From positions 25,324-89,323 of the forward strand of contig MKSY01000026.1 of NCBI GenBank assembly GCA_001897475.1: DNA of 64,000 nucleotides, read 5' to 3'. The stretch comes from Alphaproteobacteria bacterium 43-37. Lineage in GTDB: Bacteria; Pseudomonadota; Alphaproteobacteria; 43-37. A program made the translations under genes and the position numbers. How positions within the stretch are numbered: position 1 is the stretch's first letter; every line of letters starts with the position of its first letter. The notes under the pieces were generated by a model, which saw nothing but the letters and a program-made list of their open reading frames with translations, ran no database searches and was not told the origin of the DNA. This document shows positions 9,968-47,268 of the stretch, one piece after another.

Positions 9968-10032
9968 TCACAACATAAATCTTTTAATCCGTTAAATAAC
10001 CTCTCTCTTCCTATACAAGGAGTTTCCCCCTT

Positions 10033-10380
10033 ATGTGCGATCCAGTTACCGCAATGGTAGCCATGGCCGGCACCAGCATGCTCGGTACAATGTATATGGC
10101 CTCTAAAGACCGTGATATGCCAACGTTCAACCCCCCTTCTGCTAGTCTGCCTGCACCGCCACCAGCGCCTGAGCCTCCCAAGATACAGGATGCCTTCTCT
10201 GGGAATAGCCACCTCAATGACATCAAGCCAGGGCAGTTGTCCCTTGGCATCAAATCCCCACTAGAAACCAAGCTTGACCTTCGAGCCAAACAAAAGTCCG
10301 CTTTACGCAAAAAGCAAAAGGTGGAAGGGCTATTCGCTGGAGGCGGTCTCAACATTCCCATGCCGGACGGTGATGTATGA
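10033..10380 (+). CDS. Small Pro-rich hypothetical protein, translationally coupled to the portal gene (position of T7 gp6.7/7.3)
   Basis: Its stop overlaps the portal start. It has low complexity (PPSASLPAPPPAPEPP). Support is position only. Confidence 0.3.
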   Translation: MCDPVTAMVAMAGTSMLGTMYMASKDRDMPTFNPPSASLPAPPPAPEPPKIQDAFSGNSHLNDIKPGQLSLGIKSPLETKLDLRAKQKSALRKKQKVEGLFAGGGLNIPMPDGDV

Positions 10381-11894
10381 GCATGGTGATTAAACCCGAT
10401 CTCCTCAGCACGGATTCCCTTAAAAGTCGTTATGAGAAACTGGCAATCAAGCGTCATCCTTTCCTGGAGCGATCCCGTGAGTGCGCTGAGCTCACACAGC
10501 CTTACCTTATGATGCGCCCAGGTCAAACTCAATTTGTGACTCCATGGCAAGGAATCGGCTCTCGAGGAGTTAACAATTTAGCTGCCAAGCTATTGTTGGC
10601 TTTGCTTCCCCCCAACAGCCCCTTCTTTCGCCTGGTGGTGCAAGAGGCAGAATTGGTTGATGTTGACCCCAAGCTCAAGCTGCATGTCGATGAAGCCTTG
10701 ACCCAATGCGAACGCCTTTTGATGACTGAGATTGAAACAGGCGCTATGCGCGTGGGAGTCTTTGAAGCGTTAAAACACCTCATTGTTACTGGCAATAGCC
10801 TCATCTACCTTGTTCCCGAAGGGGGCATCCGCGTCTTTCACTTGGATCAGTATGTTATTCGCCGTGATCCTGCCGGCCATGCATTAGAAATCATTGTCCA
10901 TGAGAAAGTTGACCGAACTTTTGTGGATTTACCCTTAGATAGTCTTGGAATTGATAAGCCTTCATCCTCAGATCAAACCACTGTTGACCTCTTCACCAGC
11001 ATCACCTGGCAAGATGATAGATGGCATGTTCTTCAAGAGGTTGGCGGTGTCCTAGTGCCTGAATCAAAGGGAACCTACCCTAAAGACTGCTCCCCTTGGC
11101 TTGCCCTTAGGTTTATCCGGGTGGATGGCGAAGACTATGGAAGAGGTTTGGTAGAAGAATATTTGGGTGATTTGAAGAGTCTGGAGACCCTTACCAAAGC
11201 GATTGTGGAAGGAAGCGCAGCGGCAGCCAAAGTTCTGTTTCTGGTTAAGCCAAACTCCACCACGAAAGAAACAGTTCTAGCTGAAGCTCCTAATGGAGCC
11301 ATACGTTCAGGAAACGCTGAAGATGTAACAGTCCTCCAAGTGCAAAAATATGCGGACTTTCGGGTAGCCAGAGAAACTATGGAGCATATGACACAGCGGC
11401 TATCCTATGCTTTCTTGCTCAACTCTTCTATCCAAAGGCAAGGTGAGCGAGTCACAGCTGAAGAAATCCGACATATGGCAGGAGAGCTGGAAGATGCCTT
11501 GGGTGGCGTTTACTCCATCCTCTCCCAAGAGTTCCAACTGCCACTCATTTTACGACTGATGCACCAGATGGAGCGTAGAGGTTTATTCCCCAAACTGCCC
11601 AAGGGGATGGTCAGGCCCATGATTGTCACTGGCCTAGAGGCTTTAGGCAGAGGGCACGACCTTCTCAAGCTCCAGAGCTTTGTGGGCGATTTAGCCAGCC
11701 TTGGCCAAGCTTTGCCAGAAATCCTGATGCGTATTAACCCAGAAGAGCTGATCAAGCGCTTGTGCATTGCCAGAGGCTTGGATGCCCAAGGACTCATATT
11801 ATCGGAAGAAGAGCTGATGCAAAAGCAAGCGATCCAGCAACAAGCTCAGATGCAAGCTCAAGCGCCAATGCTTCCTGGCTTACCCATTACCTAA
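10377..11894 (+). CDS. Portal (head-to-tail connector) protein, T7 gp8-like
   Basis: At 505 aa it is the first large gene of the structural block that contains the scaffold, capsid and tail tubular genes. It has an acidic Gln-rich C-terminus. No direct motif evidence. Confidence 0.7.
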   Translation: MSMVIKPDLLSTDSLKSRYEKLAIKRHPFLERSRECAELTQPYLMMRPGQTQFVTPWQGIGSRGVNNLAAKLLLALLPPNSPFFRLVVQEAELVDVDPKLKLHVDEALTQCERLLMTEIETGAMRVGVFEALKHLIVTGNSLIYLVPEGGIRVFHLDQYVIRRDPAGHALEIIVHEKVDRTFVDLPLDSLGIDKPSSSDQTTVDLFTSITWQDDRWHVLQEVGGVLVPESKGTYPKDCSPWLALRFIRVDGEDYGRGLVEEYLGDLKSLETLTKAIVEGSAAAAKVLFLVKPNSTTKETVLAEAPNGAIRSGNAEDVTVLQVQKYADFRVARETMEHMTQRLSYAFLLNSSIQRQGERVTAEEIRHMAGELEDALGGVYSILSQEFQLPLILRLMHQMERRGLFPKLPKGMVRPMIVTGLEALGRGHDLLKLQSFVGDLASLGQALPEILMRINPEELIKRLCIARGLDAQGLILSEEELMQKQAIQQQAQMQAQAPMLPGLPIT

Positions 11895-26040: not shown

Positions 26041-26319
26041 ATGATTAAGACGTTTAAGTGCAGAGAAACAGAAAAGCTATTTAACGACCAGATGGTTAAA
26101 GGTTTTAGGGCCTTTGAACGGCAGGCAAGAAGGAAGCTATTATTACTGCATGCTGCCAAAGGTTTGGAAGACCTCAAATCACCTCCTGGCAACCATTTGG
26201 AAAGCTTAAAAGGTGATCGTCAAAGCCAGTACAGCATTCGCATTAATAATCAATGGCGGCTGTGTTTTGAATGGACCGATAATAACGCTTATGAAGTAGA
26301 GATAGTTGATTATCATTAG
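26041..26319 (+). CDS. higB: HigB toxin (RelE/ParE superfamily, plasmid-killer type)
   Basis: It is 92 aa with the conserved C-terminal block WRLCFEWTDNNAYEVEIVDYH. Its stop abuts the start of higA. Confidence 0.8.
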   Translation: MIKTFKCRETEKLFNDQMVKGFRAFERQARRKLLLLHAAKGLEDLKSPPGNHLESLKGDRQSQYSIRINNQWRLCFEWTDNNAYEVEIVDYH

Positions 26320-26657
26320 TGAGAAGAGCCATGTCAGAACTTGATCTTATTACCCCTGGAGAAATTCTTCTTGAAGAGTTTATGAAACCAAATGACATTA
26401 GTCAGGCTCAAATGGCTAAGGACTTGAATATTCCCGTTTCGCGCATTAGGGGGGTTGTGCATGGTCGCTCTCACATTACGGCTGATTTAGCATTAAGGCT
26501 TGCCCGATATTTTGGAACAACAGCAGAATTATGGCTCAGTCTTCAAAACGAGTATGATGTGCGAAAAACCCAACGTGCTATTGGCAAGGATATCAAAAGA
26601 CAAGTCCAGCCGCTCGTAAAACATTTTACAAACAACCTATCTGAATCACATCGCTAA
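26319..26657 (+). CDS. higA: HigA antitoxin (XRE-family HTH)
   Basis: ITPGEILLEEFMKPNDISQAQMAKDLNIPVSRIRGVVHGRSHITADLALRLARYFGTTAELWLSLQNEYD is the typical HigA/VapI HTH. Confidence 0.8.
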   Translation: MRRAMSELDLITPGEILLEEFMKPNDISQAQMAKDLNIPVSRIRGVVHGRSHITADLALRLARYFGTTAELWLSLQNEYDVRKTQRAIGKDIKRQVQPLVKHFTNNLSESHR

Positions 26658-27479: not shown

Positions 27480-29198
27480 ATGGCACAAAGCTATGTGACC
27501 TATACGGCCGATGGAAAGACAGACGTCTTTCAAGTGCCGTTTCCATTCATCTCACAACAAGACCTTAAAATCATTCTTTCTGGCGATGTACCACCCAATG
27601 GAAAACCCATTCAAGTTGAATACCTTTCACACAACAATTCCATCAAATTAAACTTCATCCCCAAAGCGGGCAGTAAAGTAACTGTGAGCCGCAAAACGTC
27701 GATACAGGATTTAGCCCAAAAGTTTCAAGCCGGAGCCATTAACAATGAGGCGCTATCTAAAAATGCTCAACAGTCCTTGCTCAAATTGCAAGAACTCGAA
27801 GAATCATTTGAAAAGACGCTTATCCCAGCTGATGGTGTTTGCTCTATGCGTGGTAATCGCATCACGGTTTTAGGCTATCCAAAAGATGACTCTGATGCGG
27901 CATCCGTAAGCTTTGTAAAATCCTTGTACAAAGAAAAAGAGGAACAGTTTGCTAAAACATCCGCCTCCATTGAAGCTCAAGTGAAAACTCATCAAGAGGT
28001 GAGCAAGGCTGTTGAAAGTTCAGTCCAATCAGTTGAGGGTAAAGTTTATGACTTGTTAGCCAAGATCGAGGATAAGTCAAAACAGATTCAATCCATTGAA
28101 GATCGGTTTACTCAAACAGGCATTAAAGCTGTTACGGATGCTCACATGCATGCCGGGCAAGCGAAAGCTTTATTGGAACAGTTGCAGGCTAAGGCAGCCG
28201 CTTTTGAGGCTGGCGTTAAAATTGCATCCGATAACATTGAAGTGAAAGCCAAAAGCGCCGCAGAGGCAATCGAATCAAGGGCCAAAAATTCTTCTGATAA
28301 TATTGATACCCTTAGGCAGAAAGCTTTGGCTGATATCGAGGCGCAAGAAAAACAGCTCAAAGATGCTGCCGCCCAAAAGCAAGCCAGCCTGGAAGAACTG
28401 TTGGCCAAAACCCAAGTTTTACATGATCAAAGCAAGGCTGCCGCCGCTGAGGCCAAGCAAACCAAAGAGAGCCTATCTCAAGACTCTGCAAAAACAATAG
28501 CCACCTTGCAGCAAGAAGCCAAAGATACCATTGATCAAGCAAAAGCTATGACAGCCAAATGTGAGGCTGATTTATCCGCTGGGCTTAAAGCAGCTCAAGA
28601 CAGCATTATCAAAACCAGGCTGGATTCCATTGCGGAAATTGCCGAGCTGACGGGCAGGCATCGGGAGCTCTTGCGCACCTGCCAGGATCATACGGATCAA
28701 TCGAAAGCTGTAATGGAAGCCAGGTCAAAGGAGATCGACACTTATAAACAAACTCTGTCCAAACTATTTGAGGAATTTAAGGCTGATTATCAAAACAAGC
28801 ACAAAGAGATGTTTGAGGTTTTAGGAGCTATCAAAGCACGAGAAGAAGCTGTCACCCAAACTTTGAGAGAAGCTCAAGCCCTCAAGCAGCAGCTTGAAAA
28901 TGAGTTTAGACAGCGCCAAGCAGAACTAGCAGCAGCTTATAGCGAGAACACTCTCAAGACCAAGTTGGAATTGTCTAACTATGCTGAGAACATTAAAAGC
29001 ACTCTTTTAAATGACGTGTTCACTGAGCTTGAAAAACCGTTGCAGCCGGAAGGTCAGGACCAACAGCCAATCCCACCAGGTACCACTGTTTCAACGCCCA
29101 TAGTTGAACCCTCTCAAACACCCACACCAGCTCCGCAAGAGCAAGAGCTTGTGCCATCAATCACACCACCGTTAGTTACCCCAACACCACAGCCATAA
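27480..29198 (+). CDS. Tail fiber-like protein 2 (gp17 N-terminal domain, long coiled coil, Pro/Thr-rich C-terminus)
   Basis: YTADGKTDVFQVPFPFISQQDLKIIL resembles T7 gp17 YQLDGSNRDFNIPFEYLARKFVVVTL. About 350 aa of Ala/Lys/Gln-rich coiled coil follow. Confidence 0.55.
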   Translation: MAQSYVTYTADGKTDVFQVPFPFISQQDLKIILSGDVPPNGKPIQVEYLSHNNSIKLNFIPKAGSKVTVSRKTSIQDLAQKFQAGAINNEALSKNAQQSLLKLQELEESFEKTLIPADGVCSMRGNRITVLGYPKDDSDAASVSFVKSLYKEKEEQFAKTSASIEAQVKTHQEVSKAVESSVQSVEGKVYDLLAKIEDKSKQIQSIEDRFTQTGIKAVTDAHMHAGQAKALLEQLQAKAAAFEAGVKIASDNIEVKAKSAAEAIESRAKNSSDNIDTLRQKALADIEAQEKQLKDAAAQKQASLEELLAKTQVLHDQSKAAAAEAKQTKESLSQDSAKTIATLQQEAKDTIDQAKAMTAKCEADLSAGLKAAQDSIIKTRLDSIAEIAELTGRHRELLRTCQDHTDQSKAVMEARSKEIDTYKQTLSKLFEEFKADYQNKHKEMFEVLGAIKAREEAVTQTLREAQALKQQLENEFRQRQAELAAAYSENTLKTKLELSNYAENIKSTLLNDVFTELEKPLQPEGQDQQPIPPGTTVSTPIVEPSQTPTPAPQEQELVPSITPPLVTPTPQP

Positions 29199-29213
29199 AG
29201 AAAGGTCAGAAGA

Positions 29214-29480
29214 ATGACAGAACCCACCACAAATAAAATCCTCCTGTTGCTAGGCAGGCTGGAGGGCAAAGTCGACTCCCTTTTGTCTAGCCAGTTAAGC
29301 ACGGAAGATACCATCAAAACCCATGACAAACGTCTCAGCAAACTGGAGAAAGCCCAAGCCTACTTAGCGGGGGCCTTGGCCCTTTGCTCTATCATTGCTT
29401 CTGGGGTGATCAAACATGTGAATTTAAAGCACATTGATGAACATCAAGAGGTTCGAATTAGAAGGGAGGAGCAACCATGA
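29214..29480 (+). CDS. Small hypothetical protein with a C-terminal transmembrane segment (gp17.5 holin position)
   Basis: It is 88 aa with one hydrophobic helix (LAGALALCSIIASGVI) and lies between the fiber and small terminase genes. Confidence 0.3.
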   Translation: MTEPTTNKILLLLGRLEGKVDSLLSSQLSTEDTIKTHDKRLSKLEKAQAYLAGALALCSIIASGVIKHVNLKHIDEHQEVRIRREEQP

Positions 29481-29692
29481 GCTCTCAACGATCAGTTCTT
29501 GAAAAGCTTCATGAGCAGCTCACCTTAATACTGTTAGAGCGGATCAAGGAAGGCGATTCAACCCCGGCACTGCTGAGTGTTGCTAGGCAGTTTCTGAAAG
29601 ACAATGGCATCGAAAGCCTGCCTACACCTGGCTCACACATGAGCGCACTGTTTGATAATATCCAGTCCTATGATCTGGATGATGCGCATTAG
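29477..29692 (+). CDS. Terminase small subunit (gp18-like)
   Basis: It is 71 aa, coupled to and immediately upstream of the large terminase, and acidic-helical like T7 gp18. Confidence 0.5.
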   Translation: MSSQRSVLEKLHEQLTLILLERIKEGDSTPALLSVARQFLKDNGIESLPTPGSHMSALFDNIQSYDLDDAH

Positions 29693-29706
29693 CAATAAAT
29701 GATTGG

Positions 29707-31377
29707 ATGATAAGCAGCATGAAAAATAACCAATCCATACACCCCATCCTTACCGACTTCCGTCAGTTCCTATTCCTGGTGTGGGAGCATCTGCATCTAT
29801 CATCACCCACACCGATTCAGCATGACATTGCCCATTTCCTGCAACACGGGCCAAGACGATGCGTGATTGAAGCTTTTCGGGGTGTTGGAAAGTCCTGGAT
29901 CACGTCGGCCTTTGTCTGCTGGAGCCTGCTTCGCAATCCTCAGCTCAACATCCTTGTCGTCTCAGCCAGCAAGCAGAGGGCGGATGACTTTTCCACCTTC
30001 ACCCGGCGCCTCATCTATGAACTGCCGATCCTGTATTCCATCCGCCCCAGAGATAATCAGCGCGATGCCAATATTGCCTTTGATGTAGGGCCTGCTCAAG
30101 CCTCACAAGCACCATCTGTTAAAAGCATAGGGATTACTGGGCAGATTACAGGAAGCCGGGCCGATATCGTGATTGCCGATGACGTTGAAGTGTTAAACAA
30201 CTCCCAAACCCCCATGATGCGGGAAAAACTCCTTACCACCATCAAAGAGTTTGAGGCTGTCATTAAGCCTGGTGGGCGAATCATTTTTCTTGGCACCCCT
30301 CAAACAGAAATGAGCATTTATCACCATTTGGAGGAAAGCGGTTATACCACAAGACTCTGGCCGGCCAGAACACCAGCTAACGATAAACTATCATCTTATG
30401 GAAGCAGACTCGCTCCTTACATCAAGAAGCTTATGTCAGACTCAGCAGAATTGACTCCCGCTGATCCCAAACGGTTTAGTGATCTTGAGCTCACAGAGCG
30501 GGAAGTGGTTTATGGCAAAACAGGGTTTGCGCTACAATTTATGTTGGATACATCCCTTAGCGATGCCAACAAGTATCCGCTGAAACTGTCCGATCTTATT
30601 GTGATGGATGTAAACTCAGACATTGCGCCAGTGAAAGTGGCTTGGTGTTCATCCTATGAGAAAGCACTTCTTGATCTTCCAACCATGGGGCTTTATGCGG
30701 ACAGGTTTTATGCGCCACTCTACATCTCAGACGAATGGGACTCTTACACTGGTTCTATCATGACCATTGACCCATCCGGCAGAGGGCAGGATGAGACAGG
30801 ATACGCCGTGGTCAAAATGCTCAAAGGTTATTTGTTCCTCACGGCAAATGGCGGCCTTAAAGGAGGGTACACGCAAGAGACATTAGAGCAACTTGCCAAG
30901 ATAGCCAAAGAGCAACAAGTGAACTTGATCCAGATTGAATCCAACTTTGGGGATGGAATGTTCACCCAGCTGTTCAAACCCATCTTACATAAACACTACT
31001 CCGTAGGGGTAGATGAAGTTCGGCACTCAACCCAAAAGGAACGGCGGATCATTGACACGCTTGAACCCGTGATGAACCAGCATCGCCTCATTATCGATAA
31101 GCGAATCATCCGCCAAGATTTTGAATCTACAAGTGAGGCGACCCACAAATTATTCTACCAAATGACTCGCATCACGAAAGACAGAGGCGCATTGGCCCAT
31201 GATGATCGCCTGGAAGCCCTTGCTATGGCTGTGAGCTACTGGGTGGATCAAATGGCAAAAGATACAGAAAGAAATGAGCAGGAACATAAGGAAAAGCTGC
31301 TGGATGAAGAGCTGGAGAGGTTTAGAAGGTGTGCCTTAAAATGCAATCATCAAAACAAAGAGGCCACCTGGGTATAA
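29707..31377 (+). CDS. Terminase large subunit (gp19-like)
   Basis: It has a Walker A block (AFRGVGKSWITSAFVCW) and an ATPase plus nuclease architecture. It is the last gene of the structural operon. Confidence 0.85.
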   Translation: MISSMKNNQSIHPILTDFRQFLFLVWEHLHLSSPTPIQHDIAHFLQHGPRRCVIEAFRGVGKSWITSAFVCWSLLRNPQLNILVVSASKQRADDFSTFTRRLIYELPILYSIRPRDNQRDANIAFDVGPAQASQAPSVKSIGITGQITGSRADIVIADDVEVLNNSQTPMMREKLLTTIKEFEAVIKPGGRIIFLGTPQTEMSIYHHLEESGYTTRLWPARTPANDKLSSYGSRLAPYIKKLMSDSAELTPADPKRFSDLELTEREVVYGKTGFALQFMLDTSLSDANKYPLKLSDLIVMDVNSDIAPVKVAWCSSYEKALLDLPTMGLYADRFYAPLYISDEWDSYTGSIMTIDPSGRGQDETGYAVVKMLKGYLFLTANGGLKGGYTQETLEQLAKIAKEQQVNLIQIESNFGDGMFTQLFKPILHKHYSVGVDEVRHSTQKERRIIDTLEPVMNQHRLIIDKRIIRQDFESTSEATHKLFYQMTRITKDRGALAHDDRLEALAMAVSYWVDQMAKDTERNEQEHKEKLLDEELERFRRCALKCNHQNKEATWV

Positions 31378-31404
31378 GGGTTCTTAAACCTAATTCTAAA
31401 CATT

Positions 31405-33348
31405 TTAAGACTTTTTGCCAGACCAACACCATTTTGCAAAATCAACTGCGGCCCAGAAAACCCCACCACGCCCACCTCCTGCAGCATCGCCTCCTTGACT
31501 CAATTCACCACCAAGACCAACACCTGTTCCTCCGGCTGCTGCTGCCGTACCTCCAGTTGATCCAACTGCAGCACCGGCCCCGGCTGAGGTAGAACCACCT
31601 TGCAACGTTGTTCCCCCTGCTCCAGTGACTGTGCTTCCTCCAGTAGCCACTGTTCCATAATTAAAGACTGCACCAGCCCCAGCAATTACCCCTGGCCGCC
31701 TTACAAAATAAATAATCGAACCAACAGCCGCAATTCCCACTACGGTACTAATGATTGGGCGCTCTAGAGCATAATGAACGGCACCATGGCCATAAGTTGT
31801 TAGTATATTTAAAATGCCGCCTTGCTGCACATTATCTCCCTGATTGATTAGCACCCTATTCCTTGCTCCAACACCTTCAACATTATGCGCACCTCTAGCT
31901 TCACCCCCATTTGCGGCTGCTGTTGCTTGTCCTGTTGAGGCTGCGCCCCTACTTGCCGCTCCTGCGCCGCCATGGGTGGCAATTGTGCCACCAGGGTAAG
32001 CGGTATGATGGTCTCCAGCTATGTTGTTGACAACATTATATTGAAAAGATTGGGCTGATCCTAGTGTTGGTGTGGCTGGCATTGACGCCGCGCCTGGAAC
32101 TGCACTGGTGGGTAACGTAGCCACGGAGAAGGATGATGCCACCGTATCAAATTCTGACCCTACGTCTCTTTCTGAGACTTCTAGTGTTTTTGCAGCTTCA
32201 GCAAGAATTGCTTGTACGGTTTTATAAGCATCTGATGAACTTGGAATACGGGATAGTAATTCCCTTAATACTGCCTGAGCCTCTTCTGCAAGTTCTGCGT
32301 TATGGCTAAATTTTTCCCAAGCAGACTTGAATGAATTAATGTCAATTCCATTTCCTCTTAGTTTAAGCCTATAAAGTCTCGCCCAAGCACCGTATTCGTT
32401 ATCCGGGTTCCTGCTTTTTACAATTTCATCTAAGTCCGCTAATGCCTCTTTGTGATCTGCATATTCGCCATTTCTATATGCAGCAATAAGTGCTCTTATG
32501 CTCGCATCTCTGTTAGCTATTTTTTCACGATCTCCTCCACTTGGTATTCTAATGTGTCCTAACCATGTGTCTCTTCTCTCTGTCAACCCCGGGGTTCCTG
32601 GCGCTGCTGCAGCGCCAACATCCACCGCTGTTGCTCTTCCTCTCCCGGTCTCGGCAGCTGATGCTGAGACAGGCTCAAACGCCCCCGTAGCTGGGTTAAG
32701 CCTGGTATGTAATGTTGGTAGTCCAGCTCCACCGCTTGCCCCTGCACCCCCTGCTGCTGCTAAGCCTGGCGCTGAGTCATCTTCTTCAACATCTGTTCGG
32801 GCAGGAACGCCTGGCTTGTTTGTTTTGGTAGCGAATGGTGTTGGTGATGCAGAAAAATAGGGATTACCCCTGCCAACTTTAATGCCATTAACAATATCAT
32901 ATGGGAGGTAAGAGGGCGTTGGGGAAGAAGCTGGGTAGAGTACTGCTATTTGTTCAAGAGTTAGCCTACCTTGCTCACCATCCACCCTTACTGGATAATT
33001 TCTTAGGCTTTCTATTCCATGAGTTGTTGTTTCATCAGCTCTTCTTGAAGGAGAAGCCGTTGCTGAGGGCATCATTGAAGGTTCAAACATGGGATTTACG
33101 TCAAACTGTATGGCTAATGGGCTTGGATTCGGAAGAGTAACAGTTCTTCCTCTTGGAAAAAACCCACCAAAGAACTCACCGGCTCCTGAAGGCTGGGCAC
33201 AGACATTCTTAGTTGGGAATGATGAAAGAATGGTGGTCAAAGCCAAAGCTTTAGCCAAAAGGAGTTTTGTTCCTTTACCTAACGTATTGCTGATATTCAT
33301 AAAAACCTCCAAGAGTGCATGAATATTTGTAACTATTATGTGATTCAT
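31405..33348 (-). CDS. Large Gly/Ala-rich protein predicted to be secreted, with a C-terminal TM helix and a poly-Gly tail
   Basis: It has an N-terminal signal peptide (LLAKALALTTILSSF), a TM helix (ISTVVGIAAVGSIIYFV) and a C-terminal G/A/T low-complexity tail. It is on the minus strand, convergent with the terminase. Confidence 0.5.
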   Translation of the reverse strand: MNHIIVTNIHALLEVFMNISNTLGKGTKLLLAKALALTTILSSFPTKNVCAQPSGAGEFFGGFFPRGRTVTLPNPSPLAIQFDVNPMFEPSMMPSATASPSRRADETTTHGIESLRNYPVRVDGEQGRLTLEQIAVLYPASSPTPSYLPYDIVNGIKVGRGNPYFSASPTPFATKTNKPGVPARTDVEEDDSAPGLAAAGGAGASGGAGLPTLHTRLNPATGAFEPVSASAAETGRGRATAVDVGAAAAPGTPGLTERRDTWLGHIRIPSGGDREKIANRDASIRALIAAYRNGEYADHKEALADLDEIVKSRNPDNEYGAWARLYRLKLRGNGIDINSFKSAWEKFSHNAELAEEAQAVLRELLSRIPSSSDAYKTVQAILAEAAKTLEVSERDVGSEFDTVASSFSVATLPTSAVPGAASMPATPTLGSAQSFQYNVVNNIAGDHHTAYPGGTIATHGGAGAASRGAASTGQATAAANGGEARGAHNVEGVGARNRVLINQGDNVQQGGILNILTTYGHGAVHYALERPIISTVVGIAAVGSIIYFVRRPGVIAGAGAVFNYGTVATGGSTVTGAGGTTLQGGSTSAGAGAAVGSTGGTAAAAGGTGVGLGGELSQGGDAAGGGRGGVFWAAVDFAKWCWSGKKS

Positions 33349-33621
33349 TATTAAGTTAACGATAATAATGGATATGGATAAATCAAGTACTATAACGGTA
33401 TAATCTAGGGAAAATGATCAAGCTTAAGATAAATATCTATTTCAATCAATGAAATAGAAGATATTATTTTTAATGAATAATTGGCATTCACTAAACGTTC
33501 CATTGATTGTTAATATCTTTAAGCAAATTACTTAATAACAAAAATATTTTTTTACAAAAATCTCAAACCCCAACTCTCCCGGTAACCGTCAGCGCTTTCC
33601 CCCGTAGGGGTGGCCACTCCG

Positions 33622-34218
33622 TCATAGCAGATCGATGAGTGCACGTTGGGCGTCGGTGTTAGCATCAATGTAGCGCTGGGTCATGGAAAGGGACGCATGA
33701 CCTGCCAGCAGCTGTACGTCTCTCAGGCTTCCTCCTACTGTCGACACCTTCCTAGCCGCATTGGTGATGAATGTTCTGCGCCCAGAATGGCTGGAGCAGC
33801 CGATGAGGCCAAGAGCTGCATACACCTTTTTGAACCAATGGACTACGTTGCAGGTGTGCATTTTACAGCCATGCTTACTAAAGATGATGTGTTTATGAGG
33901 CTCTGGTGAATGGTGCGCCTTCCTTACAACCATTCTTAAAATGATAAGTGCATCTTTCAACTGTGGATGCAGAGGAATAATCCGTCCTGACTTGCCCTTG
34001 CTGGCAGAGGATGGCAGGTGGATGTGGTTACTGATGTTCCCATCAGGATCAAGCACCATGGCCCAGGTTAGCTCAGCAATTTCCTTGGCTCGTAAACCTG
34101 CTTTAAAGGAAAGCAGCACCATTACCATATTACGCTCAGGATAGGTTAAGGCTGATACGTGATAAAGTATCCTCTCCATGTCTTTTGTTCTTAAAACTTT
34201 TGCTTGTCTACCAATCAT
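33622..34218 (-). CDS. Tyrosine recombinase, catalytic domain only (198 aa)
   Basis: It has the catalytic R (LRAKE), HSGRRTF (HxxR), LAGHASLSMTQRY (H and Y) and lacks an N-terminal core-binding domain. Confidence 0.7.
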   Translation of the reverse strand: MIGRQAKVLRTKDMERILYHVSALTYPERNMVMVLLSFKAGLRAKEIAELTWAMVLDPDGNISNHIHLPSSASKGKSGRIIPLHPQLKDALIILRMVVRKAHHSPEPHKHIIFSKHGCKMHTCNVVHWFKKVYAALGLIGCSSHSGRRTFITNAARKVSTVGGSLRDVQLLAGHASLSMTQRYIDANTDAQRALIDLL

Positions 34219-34752
34219 TTAATGCACTCATTTCAGCGGTTACTCACTACTTTTATGTGCAAATCTATGCTTGATTTTTAAAGATGGCCCTTGAATAGGG
34301 CTTCAACCTTCACTTGCACAATAAATTAATCTTTCATGTTCAACAGATGCTATGTGAGCATTGTTCAGGGCAAAAATCAAGTCTGCCGCCAACTCAACCC
34401 GTTGGTTTTGCTGGAGTTTTAGTCCATCCAAGTCAGTGTGTTGCCTTAAAAATTTTGAAGTTTGTCACTTTAACAAAAGCCGGGATTTTATAATGGAGTA
34501 TTTGTAGCTGGTAAATGGTCAGTGCATTGTGGATTGAACATTGATCAAATGAAACTGTAATATGTTGATTCAATATGATGTTTTAAGGCTTATGTCAACA
34601 TAATGATCAATTATGCATCATAATCCCTATATTTTGACCCCTGAATGGCCTTTGGGATATTGGGTGGCCCAAAAGCTCCAGAAATAGATAAAACGTATCA
34701 GTGAGCAGATTTTGGGCATTTATGACGATGTTGCTGTTTTTGTTATCTTTTC

Positions 34753-35793
34753 TCATAAAGCCTTCTTAATTAAACCAACCAAAGTCTTCATGGCTTGATC
34801 ATGAATAACGTTCTTATGGCAGTGTAGGTAAACATCAGCCGTGCCAACAGGCTCGTTCATAACCTTGACGAGTTGACTTCTATGGATCAGATCAGGCGGG
34901 TAAAGGGCAATGCCAACACCTACTTCACATAGCTTGAGCGCCATGTAGGAATGATTCACCTCTGTGATGTTTTCGGGTGGGATGTTTCCAAACCCAGCCA
35001 TCCAGTTGGCATCAAAAGTTGTATTGCCACTCACTCGTGTCACAATGATGGAATGGTTTGTTAAGTCAGCTGAAGAAAGGCTGCCAAACTTCTTCATATA
35101 TTCTGGACTTGCAAAAAGATAGCTTTGGTAGGTTTTTAAATGGATGGCTTCAAAGCCTCTGGAGATTTGATCAATGGGCCAGATGATGACGTCTGCTTCT
35201 TTAAACTTCTTATCCGGCAGAGCTGATAGCGTGTAAATGCATAGCTGAATCTGGGGGAATGCATCTTTAAACTGTTTCAGCACTTTGGGAAACACAGATA
35301 TGCCAAGAGGCAGTGTGGTGAATATTTTTATCTGATGGATGTTTGTTTTATCGGTTGCATCATTATAAGTGTCCCACTGCAACTTTGAAAAAATCTCATT
35401 GACCATTTGATAAACTTTGTCTCCTGAAGTCGTCAGCTCATACCCACGTGGTTCTCGATCAAATAGCAAAACCCTAAGAATATCTTCGAGCTTTTGAATA
35501 TTATAAGTTACCGCAGAAGGGGACATTTTTAGGTTCTTTGCGGCTAATCTACGGGTTTTGTAATAAACGCAGGCATGAAAGACTTTGAGCTGCAAAATGT
35601 TGGCACAGAGGAGGGTTTCATTTAAATGATTCTCACAAGATACGTTTTCTTGTCTTTTCCTTAGATGTGAAACTTTGGGAGTTCTAGGCTTTTTTCTTTT
35701 AGTGATTTGAAGTGATCGTTTCTGTGTCACGGTTTTAGCCTCTTTCTTGAAAACTAAACTCAAAAATTGCTCTGCCACAAATATACCGATCAA
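34753..35793 (-). CDS. LysR-family transcriptional regulator with an N-terminal Lys/Arg-rich extension
   Basis: It has an HTH (LQLKVFHACVYYKTRRLAAKNLKMSPSAVTYNIQKLE) and a LysR substrate-binding domain. It is divergent from the RNAP gene. About 60 aa of basic leader (KRKKPRTPKVSHLRKRQ) precede the HTH. Confidence 0.8.
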   Translation of the reverse strand: MIGIFVAEQFLSLVFKKEAKTVTQKRSLQITKRKKPRTPKVSHLRKRQENVSCENHLNETLLCANILQLKVFHACVYYKTRRLAAKNLKMSPSAVTYNIQKLEDILRVLLFDREPRGYELTTSGDKVYQMVNEIFSKLQWDTYNDATDKTNIHQIKIFTTLPLGISVFPKVLKQFKDAFPQIQLCIYTLSALPDKKFKEADVIIWPIDQISRGFEAIHLKTYQSYLFASPEYMKKFGSLSSADLTNHSIIVTRVSGNTTFDANWMAGFGNIPPENITEVNHSYMALKLCEVGVGIALYPPDLIHRSQLVKVMNEPVGTADVYLHCHKNVIHDQAMKTLVGLIKKAL

Positions 35794-35953
35794 TATTTAA
35801 TATTTGCCTAAAACAGGCCGTATGGCTTCAACATAGGAGGAGTCAACTTTTCTGCCCTCAAAAAACATTTGCGTCAACATAAGCCCAAATGATATATGCC
35901 CAATTTGTATTCAACTATAAAAACTGTAACCACATACAAATAGGGAACTTATC

Positions 35954-38440
35954 ATGGACTCTACTTTTACTGAAGGCAGTGTTGAGACCAATCTCAATGC
36001 CAGCCTTGAATCAAACGTTAATAGCAACGTCAATCCCCACTTTGAAGAAACATTTGTTCAACAGGGCAAAGAGCGCTTTGCCGTATCCCACCAAAAAGCC
36101 ATAAGAAAAGGTTCTTACTCGGTTACGCAGGTTGGGCGCATCCTCCTTCCGCCCGCCATTGAACCACTTAAAGAAGCTGTGATCGATTTTGTCACCACAG
36201 CGATGACTGGCCAGGCCACCACCATGGCAACAGCAGCCCTTTATCTTAAAAACCTAGCTCCTGAAGTTGTGTCATTGATCGCTTGTCGTTGCATCATCGA
36301 TAAGCTCACGCAGCCCATCTCTTTCACACGTCTTGCCAGCATCATTGGCAAAGCGATTCAGGATGAATTGATCATGGAAGCTTTCAGCGAACAAAATAGA
36401 AGGCTATACGATACTATCGCTTTAGAGAACTTGAAGAAGATTTCCAACACCTTTGTGCGCCGCTCTATGATGCGCAAGCAAGCCGCTCACTATGAAATTG
36501 TCTCACCAGAGATGGATCAATCCACCTGCATTCTTGTGGGAGCCAAGCTTATTGAACTGTTTTGTGAGGTCACTGGGTTTATCGAAATCTTCATTCAGAT
36601 TCGAAGTGGCCGGGAATACCGCATGGTGCATCCCACGGCTAAGGTCTTAGAGTCCATTGATCAGCTTTACGATCAGTTATCTGGAAGGTTCCCAGCTTTT
36701 GGCCCTATCATCAAAAAGCCCAAAGATTGGAAAAGCTTTCATGAAGGAGGATTCCATACGTTACGCCAAAAGTTTGTGCGCACCTTTTCCAAAGAGCATG
36801 CGAAGATGCTTAAACATCATGCCATGCCAAAGGTGTATGAAGCCGTCAACCATTTGCAGGCAACACCCTATGCCATTAACAAGCAAGTCTTGGAAGTGGC
36901 TCAATACATTTGGGATCGAAGAGAAAACTTTGGCGAATTGCCCTTTGCGGGGCTGCCTGAAAGGTATGTTTATGAGATACACGGCCAACCAACTGGATTT
37001 GATGAGGGTTCTCTTGCTAAGCATAAATACAATGAAAGCATAAAAAGTCAGAACCTTGAGGTCAAATTTATTCTTAAAACAGCCCATAGCTACAAGGATG
37101 AAAGGCAATTATACTTTGTCCATAACACAGACTTTCGAGGAAGGGTTTATCCTGTTACTAGTTACCTGTCCCCACAAGGCAATGATTTGAATCGCGGCAT
37201 ACTCACTTTTTCTGAATCTCAAGCAAAACCTTTGGGTAAATCAGGGCTAATCTGGCTCAAGATTCATGCAGCCAACTGTTGGGGCAAAGATAAAGACTCA
37301 TTGGATGAACGCATCAATTGGAGCAGTGATAACCTTGAGCGCATTATTCGAGTAGCTGAAGACCCGTATGCTGATTACTGGTGGGAAGAAGCGGACAAAC
37401 CGTTTCAGTTCTTGGCTGTTTGTTATGAGTTTTTAAAGCTGATGGTGGAATGGGATGATTACAAATGCGCCCTTCCCATCACAGTGGATGGATCAAACAA
37501 CGCCCTGCAACACTTCAGTGCTCTTCTCTTAGACGAGAGGCTCGGAAGGGCAACCAACATGCTCCCTCCTGAGTCAGATGGTGAAAAGCCAAAGGACTTT
37601 TACCAAGAAGTTTGTGATGCAGCCACTCACCTGATCACCATAGATGCCGCTCATGGGAAGCCAGAAGCTAAAGCTTGGGTAAAAGCCATTAACCGCAAGA
37701 TAGTGAAGTCTCCAGTTATGACCTACTATTACGGCGTCACATTCAAAGGAATGGAAGATCAGATTGATGAGGTTTTGGGAAATCAAATCGATGAAAGCTT
37801 GAAAGATCAAGCGTTAACAGTTCATGGGGATCGTAAAAAGAGTATTCAGTACCTTGTCTGGTTGTTAAAACGAATCATTCCTCAAAAGGCACCATCCGTG
37901 GAAAGCTGTATGCAGCTTTTGAAGTGCGCCACACGGCATCTTGCTAAGCAAAATAAATCCACTACATGGCTAACACCTTCTGGGTTTAAGGTTGTCCAAG
38001 ATAATCGAATAAAAACAAAGATGCAGATAAAAACTAAATTGTTTGGAACTCAGAACTTCTGGATGAGGTTCGATGCTGAGCCCAATAACGAAGATAAGGC
38101 TGATATTAAACGACAAGCCAATGGTATTACAGCCAACTTTATTCACTCTTTGGATGCTGCTGCCTTAACCCTGTGCATCTTGGAAGCTAAAAAACACAAC
38201 ATCACAGCCATTCGAACCATTCATGATAGCTTGTCTGTGGTTCCAGGTGATATGGAAGTTTTAAGCCAGCTGATTCGAAAAAGTTTTCAGCAGATGTATC
38301 AGGATAAAAACTTGCTCAAGGATTTTCTAACCCAAACATTGGACAAGGAAACAGCTGAAACCTTTTGGAAAGAAGCCAATATTAGCCTTGGGCTTCTTGA
38401 TCTCAGTCAACTGAAAAAAGCCACATACTTTTTTGCTTAA
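35954..38440 (+). CDS. Single-subunit DNA-directed RNA polymerase, T7 gene 1-like
   Basis: VDGSNNALQHFSALLLDE (T7 DGSCSGIQHFSAMLRDE), NFIHSLDAAAL (T7 NFVHSQDGSHL), IHDSLSVVP (T7 IHDSFGTIP) and the C-terminus ...YFFA (T7 ...FAFA). Confidence 0.92.
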   Translation: MDSTFTEGSVETNLNASLESNVNSNVNPHFEETFVQQGKERFAVSHQKAIRKGSYSVTQVGRILLPPAIEPLKEAVIDFVTTAMTGQATTMATAALYLKNLAPEVVSLIACRCIIDKLTQPISFTRLASIIGKAIQDELIMEAFSEQNRRLYDTIALENLKKISNTFVRRSMMRKQAAHYEIVSPEMDQSTCILVGAKLIELFCEVTGFIEIFIQIRSGREYRMVHPTAKVLESIDQLYDQLSGRFPAFGPIIKKPKDWKSFHEGGFHTLRQKFVRTFSKEHAKMLKHHAMPKVYEAVNHLQATPYAINKQVLEVAQYIWDRRENFGELPFAGLPERYVYEIHGQPTGFDEGSLAKHKYNESIKSQNLEVKFILKTAHSYKDERQLYFVHNTDFRGRVYPVTSYLSPQGNDLNRGILTFSESQAKPLGKSGLIWLKIHAANCWGKDKDSLDERINWSSDNLERIIRVAEDPYADYWWEEADKPFQFLAVCYEFLKLMVEWDDYKCALPITVDGSNNALQHFSALLLDERLGRATNMLPPESDGEKPKDFYQEVCDAATHLITIDAAHGKPEAKAWVKAINRKIVKSPVMTYYYGVTFKGMEDQIDEVLGNQIDESLKDQALTVHGDRKKSIQYLVWLLKRIIPQKAPSVESCMQLLKCATRHLAKQNKSTTWLTPSGFKVVQDNRIKTKMQIKTKLFGTQNFWMRFDAEPNNEDKADIKRQANGITANFIHSLDAAALTLCILEAKKHNITAIRTIHDSLSVVPGDMEVLSQLIRKSFQQMYQDKNLLKDFLTQTLDKETAETFWKEANISLGLLDLSQLKKATYFFA

Positions 38441-38642
38441 ATGAGTGTGAGGATGAAGAAAAAGAATAACGCAATTTACAAAAAGGAATATTCATAAAAT
38501 TTTATACAGAAAGTTTGCGTATTGGAGAAATCAATCATCTCTTGTTTTAGGTTAATCACAACTAAGAACAAATAATGATCCACAGTGACATCCTATATAA
38601 TATATATTAATAAACTATAGTATTTTATAATAACTTAAATGA

Positions 38643-38690
38643 ACTTAAGGCAGCTTAAAAAACAAATGAAGGCTGCCTTAAGTTATTTTT
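38643..38690 (+). terminator. Rho-independent terminator-like hairpin downstream of the RNAP gene
   Basis: A 13-bp perfect stem (aacttaaggcagc / gctgccttaagtt) is followed by ATTTTT. Confidence 0.45.
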
Positions 38691-38770
38691 AAAGAGCCTT
38701 AAGAAACTTAAAGCACATATAAGCTTCTTCTTTCATCATCTTCATCAACATATCTTACTTTCCAAAGTCT

Positions 38771-38940
38771 GCTCAAGCCCGAGCCGCCCAGGCGGGAGGC
38801 AGGGCGAGGGCTGCAAGCAGCCACAGACGACACAAAGAAAGGAAAGACACAAAAGAAAGTGTCATCTCATCTCTTCCAAGAGCAATCGTCGTGTCGCACT
38901 GCGAGGCAGTTGCTGCCAAGGCAGGAGATAGAACAAAGAA
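38771..38940. other. GC-rich structured block inside the 650-bp noncoding region between the RNAP and SSB genes (candidate ori, promoter cluster or ncRNA)
   Basis: gctcaagcccgagccgcccaggcgggaggcagggcgagggctgcaagcagcc... has short palindromes (ggctgcaagcagcc). It is flanked by very AT-rich DNA (tatataatatatattaataaactatag). Confidence 0.3.
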
Positions 38941-39093
38941 TCATTCATCATACCTAATGTTTTCTTAAGGAAAGGAAGCATCATGACAAACTCATCATAA
39001 AAAGGCTCTGTCAAGAGCCGCCCCTTAATTCATCATAATGAACCATAATTCATTTAATGCCTTCATTTCTTTTACTCAAAGGACACACATCCC

Positions 39094-39681
39094 ATGTCTT
39101 CACAAAAACCTCTTACTTCACCAAAAGGCACTCTCCTCTTTGGAGCCATCCATAGTCCCAGCACCAAGTTTAATGAGCTGGGTGAATACGTTGCTGTCAT
39201 GATCTTCTCAGATGAAGAAACACAAAAGTTCATTGAAACACTGGAAGCCAACCTTGAAGGCTTTCGTCAATCTCAAGGTATTTCATCAAATGCTCGAAAG
39301 AACATTCCCTACAAGAAGGTCATTGATCAGGAAGGAAAAGAAACTGGTCAGATCAGCTTTAAGTTTGGAAGCAAAGCCAAAATTATCCGAGAGGACAAAG
39401 AACCCATCACCATTCGTCCTGTCATCTTTGATGAAGCAGGTAAGCCTTATGATGTTGATATTGGAAGTGGTTCTGAGCTGAAGGTATCCTATGTCTGCCA
39501 TTATTGGTCAAACCCAGGATTGGGTTATGGAGTGTCGCTTCGTCTGAAAGCTGTGCAGGTCTTGGATTTAAGGGAGCCTCAGGCATCACAACGAGATGCT
39601 GAGTATTACGGATTTACCTTTGAAGGAGAGAATGATGAGCATTCAGGCCAAGAGGCAGATGAGGAAGAAGTCTCCTTCTAA
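39094..39681 (+). CDS. Single-stranded DNA-binding protein, T7 gp2.5-like
   Basis: It is about 195 aa and begins the DNA-metabolism block. It has an acidic C-terminal tail ending in an aromatic residue (EADEEEVSF), as in gp2.5 (…EDGDF). Confidence 0.75.
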   Translation: MSSQKPLTSPKGTLLFGAIHSPSTKFNELGEYVAVMIFSDEETQKFIETLEANLEGFRQSQGISSNARKNIPYKKVIDQEGKETGQISFKFGSKAKIIREDKEPITIRPVIFDEAGKPYDVDIGSGSELKVSYVCHYWSNPGLGYGVSLRLKAVQVLDLREPQASQRDAEYYGFTFEGENDEHSGQEADEEEVSF

Positions 39682-41776: not shown

Positions 41777-42298
41777 ATGCAAAATTTAAATACAACTTCT
41801 GATTTTGAGCTCAATAATCGTTCTGGTCGTGGCATTCAAGATAATACTCGTCCATTAAAGCATTTTAAGTCGATCCGTAACAAAAAGTTTGGTTTTTCTC
41901 TTGATGCGATGACGGATGATGAAGGAACGGTTTGGTTTGTTTTTGATGTCGTTTGCTACTATCTGGGATTATCGACTTTAAAGAACCCTAAAGAGACTCT
42001 TAATGAAGCTCAAACACGTGTCGTTACAACGGGTATATATGGGGGCTGGAAGCCAATCACTCTTGTCAGTGAGCCTGGAGTTTATCATCTGGCTTTAAGA
42101 AGCCATAAACCAAGCGCCGAACGATTCTATGAATGGGTCTTTGAGGACGCACTACCTTCTATTCGCAAAGCAAGCATTGATGCTTTACTGGCTCAAATTA
42201 ATGCATTCAATGAAGAGATCAGAGAAACTAAGGAATTGCTGCGAGCTCGTCATGAGGAGCTGATCTTCTGCAAATTCGGTGCAGATTACATTTGTTAA
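41777..42298 (+). CDS. Bro-N domain protein
   Basis: WFVFDVVCYYLGL...GVYHLALRSHKPSAERFYEWVFEDALPSIRK is a Bro-N (antirepressor N-terminal) signature. Confidence 0.65.
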   Translation: MQNLNTTSDFELNNRSGRGIQDNTRPLKHFKSIRNKKFGFSLDAMTDDEGTVWFVFDVVCYYLGLSTLKNPKETLNEAQTRVVTTGIYGGWKPITLVSEPGVYHLALRSHKPSAERFYEWVFEDALPSIRKASIDALLAQINAFNEEIRETKELLRARHEELIFCKFGADYIC

Positions 42299-42661: not shown

Positions 42662-43525
42662 ATGAAGCACTCAAATAAGGATTTAAAACTTATGACTATT
42701 CTAAATTTTCCTGGCACCAGCGCCACTAACACCCATGCCAATTCTTCCTCTAATAGCACCGCCTCAGCTTTACAAACCTTTCTTTTTGAAGATCAAAATG
42801 TCCGCATTGCCCTTGATGATAAAGGTGAGCCTTGGTTTGTGGCTGCAGATGTTTGCAGGATTCTAAATCTCCAAGATCATAAGTCGGCATTAAGGCCTCT
42901 AGAAGAAGATGAAAGGGGGGTAAAAACTTTCCTATCCCATGGAGGGCCTCAAAAATACTCCATTATTAATGAATCAGGCCTTTATTGGCTTATCTTTAGA
43001 AGCACCAAGCCTGATGCCAAACGCTTCCGTATTTGGGTTACCAATGAAGTCTTGCCATCCATTCGCAAGACTGGCAGCTATAGTGTGCATAATAAAATTC
43101 CAGACTTTACCAAAATCCCAGAAACATACGAAGAGCTGATGTTCCACCATCAATATGTTGTTGGAGCTTGTATAAAGCTGCAAAAGGAAAACGAGGTTAT
43201 TAAGCCCAAAGCGTTATTTTATGACAATTATAAAGATGTGAAGGGAAATCACCCCCTGCGTGCCTTAGGTAAACTCTTTCATCTTCCGCCCAATGGGCTT
43301 ATTAAACAGCTGATTGAGGATGGATTCTTATATCGGTGTGGTAAGTCGCTCATGGCCAAGCAAACCTTTGTCCAGAAGAAGTGGTTTGAGACCAAGCTGG
43401 TCATTGATTATCATGGAAGACCTAAAACACAAACGGTTGTTACGCCCAAAGGTGTTTTAGGATTAGCTGAGCGCTACGGTTTCATGAATGACTCTGATTC
43501 CAACGATGACTACTTAATCAATTGA
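42662..43525 (+). CDS. Bro-N domain plus KilA-C/ANT-like C-terminal domain protein
   Basis: It has a second Bro-N block (WFVAADVCRILNL...GLYWLIFRSTKPDAKRFRIWVTNEVLPSIRK). The C-terminal 150 aa resemble antirepressor C-domains. Confidence 0.65.
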   Translation: MKHSNKDLKLMTILNFPGTSATNTHANSSSNSTASALQTFLFEDQNVRIALDDKGEPWFVAADVCRILNLQDHKSALRPLEEDERGVKTFLSHGGPQKYSIINESGLYWLIFRSTKPDAKRFRIWVTNEVLPSIRKTGSYSVHNKIPDFTKIPETYEELMFHHQYVVGACIKLQKENEVIKPKALFYDNYKDVKGNHPLRALGKLFHLPPNGLIKQLIEDGFLYRCGKSLMAKQTFVQKKWFETKLVIDYHGRPKTQTVVTPKGVLGLAERYGFMNDSDSNDDYLIN

Positions 43526-47119: not shown

Positions 47120-47243
47120 TCTAACTTGTTACCTATATGTTACCTAGGAGAAAAATCCAGAAGTTGCTAACTTCAAAAACCCTAGGGAAACTATGGTGGG
47201 CGATGAGGGGATTGAACCCCCGACCCTCTCGGTGTAAACGAGA
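47086..47243. repeat. attR: direct repeat partner of 8472-8619, overlapping the 3' 50 nt of tRNA-Val
   Basis: Positions 47194-47243 are identical to 8570-8619. The upstream imperfect homology contains the TTGTTACCTA tandem at 47127-47148. Confidence 0.75.
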
Positions 47244-47268
47244 CGCTCTCCCGCTGAGCTAATCGCCC
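47194..47268 (-). tRNA. tRNA-Val (anticodon TAC)
   Basis: The reverse complement reads GGGCGATTAGCTCAGCGGGAGAGCGTCTCGTTTACACCGAGAGGGTCGGGGGTTCAATCCCCTCATCGCCCACCA. It has a 7-bp acceptor stem, a TTTACAC anticodon loop, a TTCAATC T-loop and CCA. Confidence 0.85.

Follow-up and report, generated by a model that had tools for sequence, protein, structure and literature searches.

What are three genes on the minus strand doing between the large terminase and RNA polymerase genes of a T7-like prophage? The prophage lies in a 64,000 nucleotide (nt) stretch of Alphaproteobacteria bacterium 43-37 (GenBank assembly GCA_001897475.1, contig MKSY01000026.1, positions 25,324 to 89,323 of the forward strand), which we refer to as the window and whose coordinates are used throughout. 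T7-like phages have long been regarded as strictly lytic. An earlier note on this DNA described the three open reading frames (ORFs) as one cargo or mobile module nested in the prophage, and all three are present on the minus strand between a T7-type large terminase (TerL) gene and a T7-type RNA polymerase (RNAP) gene. From left to right, the locus consists of:

29707–31377, plus strand, T7-type large terminase TerL, the last late gene (PF22530, 1.6e-42)
31326–33582, no strand, variable cargo slot without DNA homology to the paralogous prophage L007
31405–33300, minus strand, cargo gene for a 631-residue Ala/Gly/Thr/Ser/Pro-rich orphan protein that matches only itself in protein searches
33622–34218, minus strand, 198-residue tyrosine recombinase, Xer-like catalytic domain only (PF00589)
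34753–35730, minus strand, LysR-type regulator, 325 residues, GTG start (PF00126 HTH_1, 2.5e-13; PF03466 LysR_substrate, 7.7e-17)
35731–35953, no strand, divergent LysR/RNAP control region, 223 bp
35954–38440, plus strand, T7-type single-subunit RNAP (PF00940, 9e-88; PF14700; phrog_414, 5e-200)

We favour, with confidence a little better than even, a reading in which the block is made of three parts with different histories, set at the joined ends of a T7-type genome. The LysR regulator and the region that it shares with RNAP would form a lysogeny switch, the recombinase would serve a conserved function of the phage backbone, and the segment between the recombinase and TerL would be a slot for lysogenic-conversion cargo.

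The composite nature of the block is seen when the window element is compared with five related elements, in which the DNA between the recombinase and TerL encodes the following:

Window element: the 631-residue orphan protein
L007 (= L099, L142): a 159-residue protein, an AAA-ATPase-like protein, an ATP-binding cassette (ABC) transporter and an HlyD/AprE-type adaptor (a type I secretion set)
L137 (RNAP 88% identical to that of the window): an FG-GAP repeat protein
L010 (decayed remnant without RNAP, LysR or TerL): an FG-GAP protein, then insertion sequence (IS) elements
L140 (recombinase 74–76% and TerL 80% identical): orphans of 1220 and 364 residues, then a convergent TerL
L141 (from the same sample as L140): an AAA protein, a membrane-fusion protein and a C39-peptidase ABC exporter

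With L007, blastn alignment of the region is confined to 28001–31325 and 33583–38441, with breakpoints at 31325 and 33583; the left breakpoint is inside TerL, the last ~50 nt of which have no DNA homology to the paralogue. On either side of the gap the encoded proteins are closely related (amino acid identities of 83% for RNAP, 93% for TerL, 79% for LysR and 87% for the recombinase). The order RNAP, divergent LysR, recombinase, cargo and convergent TerL recurs in L007, L099 and L142, and is partly visible in L137 and in L140. All six elements have retained the recombinase, and no contig that extends to the LysR position lacks LysR, while five different cargo sets occupy the slot, with content that differs between the window and each of its relatives. 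Four of these five sets encode predicted exported or membrane-anchored proteins or components of secretion systems, and the cargo genes share the orientation of LysR and the recombinase, opposite to that of the lytic genes. The DNA between the recombinase and TerL is thus a hypervariable permissive slot, in which each related prophage has its own cargo. The suggestion that part of the block varies among related prophages is borne out for this segment, and a check of the relatives for a conserved syntenic structural unit came out negative, in keeping with the proposal that the block is non-structural. Scans of viral contigs based on RNAP recovered the paralogue only; among more distant RNAP relatives there are either ordinary same-strand early genes with a standard integrase (L139) or too little flanking sequence (L138).

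We note that L007 (GCA_017308305.1, contig JAFKFD010000068) is another intact T7-like prophage of this clade in the same metagenome-assembled genome, with DNA 77–83% identical to that of the window element. The L010 remnant is on a contig in other samples, adjoining uvrC, pgsA and a tRNA-Val-like sequence. The presence of this second prophage and of the remnant indicates that the host lineage has been lysogenised repeatedly by this phage clade.

The same comparisons speak to whether LysR, recombinase and cargo are instead a secondary integrative element, inserted into the prophage and unconnected with phage biology. All three genes do oppose the phage genes, the recombinase with its upstream leader and cargo survive in L010 where RNAP, LysR and TerL are gone, and the recombinase family is widespread outside phages. 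However, the alignment with L007 DNA continues without a gap from the recombinase across LysR and into RNAP, every contig of the clade that extends to the positions of LysR and the recombinase has these genes (L140 has the recombinase with a convergent TerL), and a repeat search around the block revealed no flanking direct repeats. The separate histories of the components (cargo swaps, a swap of LysR alleles and a conserved recombinase) also argue against a unit, and a secondary element seems quite improbable. The view of the block as one nested mobile module is therefore abandoned, with LysR and the recombinase assigned to the conserved prophage backbone.

The LysR assignment stands, both HTH_1 and LysR_substrate domains being found, and no NCBIfam equivalog reaches its cut-off for this protein. 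The GTG at 35730 is the likeliest start: it has AAGAGG upstream, and the N-terminus is the same in the L007 paralogue. Residues 1–45 (35596–35730, minus strand) form a strongly basic extension, ITKRKKPRTPKVSHLRKRQ, ahead of the helix-turn-helix; this extension of ~45 residues is kept in the L007 copy and is absent from the L137 allele, to which LysR is only 32% identical. A divergent pair of genes across a shared region is the classical arrangement for a LysR-type regulator and its target. LysR-type regulators bind a T-N11-A dyad in the promoter region that they share with such a target. Within the shared region here, a dyad with 22-nt arms (35889–35910 and 35934–35955) spans the RNAP start codon; as RNA it would fold with −18.3 kcal/mol (z = −3.9; none of 200 shuffled sequences was as stable) and would bury the start region. 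The dyad too is shared with L007 and is missing from the L137 allele. The control region as a whole is 89% identical to that of L007, compared with 52–66% at third codon positions of the flanking genes (66% for LysR, 52–58% for neighbouring genes).

The L137 element is informative, in that it has no DNA match to 34740–36035 of the window, a stretch that takes in LysR, the control region and ~80 nt at the start of RNAP, whereas the flanks of the swapped segment are 88% (RNAP) and 84% (recombinase) identical to the window. This joint swap of regulator and control region follows the mosaic pattern seen in phage immunity regions. The window and L007 have the same LysR allele with two different cargos, and LysR is thus not cargo-specific. 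In the proposed switch, LysR would bind the control region and hold the RNAP gene silent in the lysogen, and all of the RNAP-dependent middle and late genes would consequently be silenced. In LUZ100, Pasto and HTVC019P, a MarR-like regulator at the same position is the proposed repressor of RNAP (PMC10134795), and by analogy LysR would do here for RNAP what the MarR-like regulator is proposed to do in those other temperate T7-like phages.

The second part of the block is the small recombinase. Its PF00589 match (3e-20) covers residues 7–187 of 198 and includes the catalytic domain only, and in an alignment of 22 sequences the active site residues R43, K74, H144, R147, H174 and Y183 are invariant, so that the R-K-H-R-H pentad and the tyrosine nucleophile are complete. 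In the PDB, a profile of the family matches solved structures over their C-terminal halves only (residues 104–270 of XerC-like 4a8e and 109–288 of XerD 1a0p), and these alignments agree with the Pfam match that an N-terminal DNA-binding domain is missing, as had been proposed. ‘Simple’ tyrosine recombinases are composed of a core-binding (CB) domain and a catalytic domain (PMC8138268); the 198-residue protein has no CB domain N-terminal to its catalytic domain. It is neither the lone domain of the earlier note nor a truncated one: database matches at E<1e-5 number more than 8000, and of the 120 best, on which lengths were judged, nearly all are 191–211 residues long. Protein identity to the L007 copy is 87% and third codon position identity is 52%, which indicates that the recombinase is under purifying selection, and both recombinase and leader are retained even in the decayed L010 remnant.

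The closest relatives of the recombinase are from Caedibacter and Finniella genomes, and at 50–60% identity there are relatives in Caedibacter, Finniella, Bradyrhizobium, Sphingomonas, Vampirovibrio and many others. Members of the family are also encoded by large phages, jumbo phages included, of Caulobacter, Sphingobium and Roseobacter-group hosts, some of these phages being virulent, and by plasmids of Piscirickettsia and Legionella, including an 8.6-kb Piscirickettsia plasmid on which the gene adjoins ParA. Occurrence in large phages and plasmids, once beside ParA, fits resolution or circularisation better than chromosomal integration. When ORFs beside the recombinase were clustered at 80 genome loci from across the family, a single recurrent neighbour emerged, an uncharacterised downstream ORF of ~180 residues (33 of 80 loci), and no informative Pfam domains were found among the neighbours. 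No functional study or described member of a family of ~195-residue, catalytic-domain-only recombinases was found in the literature searched.

Two loci in Caedibacter sp. 37-49 are of interest in their own right. At one (L019, 14474–16741), a 755-residue ORF has Sel1 repeats joined to a T7-terminase RNaseH-like domain and is ~4 kb from a family recombinase, adjoining a Tn3 transposase; the ORF could derive from a terminase by domestication or decay. At the other (L013/L014, ~10001–10582), a family recombinase is between a PIN/MazE toxin–antitoxin pair and eukaryote-like genes coding for a U-box E3 ligase and leucine-rich repeat proteins, which suggests that the family marks islands of host-interaction genes in symbiont genomes.

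Within the three-part reading, the recombinase together with its flanking noncoding elements is conserved as a part of the backbone, and its function would be a backbone function. A Cre- or Xer-like role in resolving or circularising phage DNA is our preferred guess, offered tentatively, because of the position of the gene at the joined map ends, its plasmid and large-phage relatives, and the requirement for a circle before the full-length integrase of the prophage (see below) can act, attP being in the middle of a T7-type map.

Long noncoding stretches on both sides of the recombinase gene (33349–33621 and 34219–34752) are real, and within them two segments are conserved:

33548–33621, minus strand, conserved 3′ element after the recombinase stop codon, conserved in four close elements
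34205–34497, minus strand, conserved leader upstream of the recombinase (nhmmer)

The leader is ~290 nt long, has no ORF and has stops in every frame. It is recovered by nhmmer in every copy of four related elements (1e-79 to 1e-84), with weak matches in L140 and L141 (6e-5 and 1e-3), whose leaders are near-identical to each other though their cargo differs. It includes two copies of TTGMACATRAAA (34251–34262 and 34332–34343, minus strand), 81 nt apart, which are the sole exact copies in the window, and a similar pair ~84 nt apart is present in L140 and L141, whose leaders have otherwise diverged. RNAalifold gave a weak consensus fold for the leader (−15.9 kcal/mol, almost no covariation), and there is no credible Rfam match within 31000–39500. 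The 3′ element has a GC hairpin of the form CCCC-N3-5-GGGG (~33600–33610), then AAGCGCTGAYGG, then a run of T residues ~30 nt further on; six elements have the hairpin, with no compensatory changes, and the fold of this region is no better than that of shuffled sequence (z = 0.3). Both the 3′ element and the leader are lineage-specific, being absent from the 80 genome loci of the wider recombinase family, and they may be promoter, operator or recombinase-binding elements.

A further question is whether the recombinase inserts or swaps gene cassettes just downstream of its own gene, as a phage-borne, integron-like capture platform. In all six elements the variable DNA starts within ~40–75 nt of the recombinase stop codon, after the GC-hairpin element, and the cargo is always co-directional with the recombinase. 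One example is the pair L140 and L141, which come from one sample and combine almost identical leaders with different cargo, and elsewhere the wider recombinase family also adjoins variable genes. The breakpoints, however, differ by pair (33583 against L007 and 33547 against L010) and do not coincide, so that there is no single crossover point, and no related repeat or common motif was seen at the TerL-side boundary (27–49 nt; the homology break is inside the 3′ end of TerL). No attC-like structure was seen, no dedicated attC model having been run, and no Rfam family matches; the 3′ element is lacking in the wider family. Integron integrases are larger proteins, with genes pointing away from their cassettes, whereas the recombinase here has 198 residues and is co-directional with the cargo, and there is no integron-integrase model among its NCBIfam matches. 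Cassette capture by the recombinase is thus an unlikely explanation of the slot.

A related but broader proposal is that recombinase, leader and 3′ element constitute a self-contained recombination device, for which we can suggest two versions. In the first, a recombinase without a core domain of its own could take its specificity from the flanking noncoding DNA or its RNA and mediate cargo exchange; in the second, the device could provide a Cre-like circularisation step that allows T7-like phages to become temperate. We regard such a device as rather unlikely.

A third role for the recombinase, which develops the flipping function raised in the earlier note, is that of a FimB/FimE-style invertase that flips a promoter segment in one of the noncoding stretches and so switches the cargo. 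Its size of 198 residues and its catalytic-domain-only build do resemble FimB and FimE, and the gene immediately precedes the cargo gene and is flanked by long noncoding DNA on either side. However, no inverted repeats bracket 33301–33621 or 34219–34752, and a search in and around both noncoding stretches gave nothing above chance: the best pairs match at 17 of 20 to 19 of 24 positions and are kilobases apart, with an estimated ~0.4 pairs expected by chance per 5 kb. The leader repeats are direct and not inverted. The FimB/FimE-type NCBIfam models PRK09870 and PRK09871 score 17.2 and 16.3 bits against cut-offs of 221 and 222. Furthermore, the locus is represented by six independent public contigs, from different samples, and all six are collinear and have a single orientation. 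Promoter flipping is therefore set aside as very improbable.

The occupant of the slot in the window, the third part of the block, is the orphan protein. The reading frame is open to 33348, which gives the 647 residues first reported, though the likely start is the ATG at 33300, which is preceded by GGAGG 6 nt upstream and is the start used by public gene callers, so that the protein has 631 residues. Only a self-match was returned by a word-indexed search of 5.8 billion clusters and by an exhaustive HMMER search of 1.84 billion representative proteins, and there is nothing significant in Pfam, PHROGs, NCBIfam or PADLOC. The recombinase and LysR likewise match none of the PADLOC models of anti-phage defence systems, and the ABC protein of L007 matches generic ATPases only. 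Nonetheless, the GC contents at the first, second and third codon positions (GC1, GC2 and GC3) are 0.58, 0.57 and 0.30, and this strong codon-position periodicity indicates a real coding frame. For comparison, GC3 is 0.42–0.52 in most phage and host genes examined and 0.35 in the integrase, and the value of 0.30 shows that codon usage of the large ORF is foreign, differing from that of neighbouring genes; by this measure the gene was probably acquired horizontally. The description of the block as AT-rich holds for the noncoding DNA (31–37% GC) and for the third codon positions of the large ORF, but not for that ORF overall, which at 48% GC is above the window mean.

The signal-peptide-like N-terminus, single transmembrane helix and Gly-rich tail reported for this protein can all be seen in a crude hydropathy scan, which reveals an N-terminal hydrophobic segment at residues 10–28, followed by VCA/QP, and one strong transmembrane segment at residues 515–533 (in the 631-residue numbering), followed by RRPG and a C-terminal tail that is 31% Gly. 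AlphaFold2, run without an alignment, gave a mean model confidence (pLDDT) of 40 for the whole protein and of 68 for a helical-repeat core (approximately residues 255–390) alone; the best Foldseek matches of the core in the PDB are TPR-like, with E = 0.18 or worse, and are not significant. The predicted layout is a signal peptide, an exported and mostly disordered region of ~470 residues that includes a TPR-like core, a single membrane anchor and, in the cytoplasm, a Gly-rich tail. Such a protein would change the envelope of the lysogen or its interaction with a host. The idea of lysogenic conversion fits a variable and non-structural cargo, and the foreign codon usage of the orphan gene is consistent with it.

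Several points weigh against the three-part reading and temper our confidence in it. For the switch, the 89% identity of the control region was at one stage read as constraint, a reading that was downgraded after L137 showed an unrelated allele, and the identity may reflect gene conversion between co-resident prophages rather than constraint. Moreover, a simple repressor model sits uneasily with the presence in one genome of two prophages whose LysR control regions are nearly identical, because such prophages would be homoimmune. For the recombinase, a site of the Cre/lox or Xer/dif type would be expected to have two inverted arms of 11–13 bp around a 6–8 bp spacer near the gene, and no lox- or dif-like site (arms of at least 10 nt, spacer of 5–9 nt) was found; one 9-bp palindrome with a 5-nt spacer (33436–33458) is at chance level and is in the non-conserved cargo leader. 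For the cargo, the topology of the orphan protein depends on crude hydropathy and a low-confidence model, the protein is identical in all six public contigs so that selection on the gene is not measurable, and the cargo could serve the phage, for example in superinfection exclusion, rather than benefit the host.

The frame in which the block is set is that of a complete integrated element, with the following features:

About 8543–47243, T7-like prophage, 38.6 kb, integrated at tRNA-Val
8511–8619, no strand, attL, left boundary, 3′ part of tRNA-Val and adjacent bases (repeat)
8774–9967, plus strand, full-length integrase, 397 residues (PF13356, PF22022, PF00589; phrog_1 integrase, 5e-72)
47135–47268, minus strand, attR, right boundary and tRNA-Val (47194–47268, ARAGORN; repeat with 8511–8619)

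A 109-nt direct repeat (8511–8619 and 47135–47243) is 87% identical between the two ends, rising to 95% in a core (8543–8619 and 47167–47243). The integrase has arm-binding, central and catalytic domains, and accounts for insertion of the prophage at tRNA-Val. The gene order is integrase, structural genes, TerL, the minus-strand block, RNAP, primase-helicase, DNA polymerase and tRNA, so that the attachment site has genes for DNA metabolism on one side and genes for structural proteins on the other. The integrase adjoining attL and the attachment site (att) repeats at the prophage edges make the junction between TerL and RNAP internal to the prophage, and this slot is, as the earlier note had it, the place of the T7 map ends. 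The replication and packaging set is in T7 order (primase-helicase, DNA polymerase A, endonuclease I, small and large terminases and a tail-fibre N-terminus), these labels being Pfam labels on the called genes of identical contigs (fibre PF03906, TerL PF22530). RNAP, T7-order genes, and integrase with att repeats at a tRNA are thus all present, as expected of a temperate T7-like (Autographiviridae-like) prophage, and the nearest cultured phages are ~31% identical in RNAP (Pelagibacter HTVC, Rhizobium RHEph01, Mesorhizobium Lo5R7ANS and LUZ100).

Three other segments of the prophage deserve mention. Within the late genes, between those for a 1260-residue internal virion protein and a 235-residue fibre-like protein, there is a pair encoding a HigB-like toxin (26041–26319, plus strand) and an HTH_3 HigA-like antitoxin (26331–26657, plus strand), with Pfam labels transferred to window coordinates from the gene table of identical contigs; the pair makes up a second cargo insertion. 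Between primase-helicase and DNA polymerase there are Bro-N and Bro-N/ANT genes (41777–42298 and 42662–43525, plus strand), also labelled from the gene tables of identical contigs, and these are unusual content for a T7 class II region. Directly after RNAP is a 650-nt AT-rich noncoding stretch (38441–39093), pieces of which (38494–38925) are kept even in the L010 remnant, and which corresponds by position to the primary replication origin and promoter region that T7 has after gene 1.

The locus bears on how temperate T7-like phages and their hosts are organised in three respects. How such phages silence their own RNAP is still a matter of hypothesis, built on MarR-type regulators, and this clade offers a second, independent arrangement, with a divergent LysR and an exchangeable, immunity-like control region. 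The slot beside the recombinase is a natural cargo site that gathers surface and secretion genes in an uncultured alphaproteobacterium, and bears on the reshaping of such bacteria by prophages. Finally, catalytic-domain-only recombinases of ~195 residues are very abundant, with thousands on phages, plasmids and chromosomes.

Among known systems, FimB and FimE share with the recombinase their length of ~200 residues and the presence of a catalytic domain only, but the similarity is far below the family cut-offs, and there are neither flanking inverted repeats nor orientation polymorphism here. Cre/loxP of P1 and Xer/dif are alike in that the recombinase is at the junction of the linear map ends, and Xer proteins in addition provide the closest solved structures to the catalytic domain and are comparable in that relatives of the recombinase are found on plasmids beside partition genes; the large phages that encode relatives are not known to integrate. 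The differences are the lack of a core-binding domain and of a recognisable site with 13-bp arms. Phage morons and lysogenic-conversion cargo near genome ends are similarly on the opposite strand, variable, compositionally foreign and set in a syntenic backbone, and like them the cargo here encodes envelope or secretion proteins; it differs in being large (orphans of 0.6–1.2 thousand residues or sets of three to four genes) and in a slot that is always directly downstream of a conserved recombinase gene. The closest parallel is with the module of MarR-like regulator and integrase in LUZ100, Pasto, HTVC019P and Lo5R7ANS, in which a transcription factor and a tyrosine recombinase are likewise immediately upstream of RNAP. 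There the regulator is of the MarR type and co-directional with RNAP, whereas here it is of the LysR type and divergent; there the adjacent recombinase is an integrase, whereas here it is a 198-residue catalytic domain, and the full-length integrase and attP are elsewhere, flanked by genes for DNA metabolism and for structural proteins; and here the recombinase is followed by a variable cargo slot, in a clade whose RNAP is ~31% identical to those of the cultured phages. The locus is thus a variant of the temperate T7-like lysogeny module, joined to a cargo slot.

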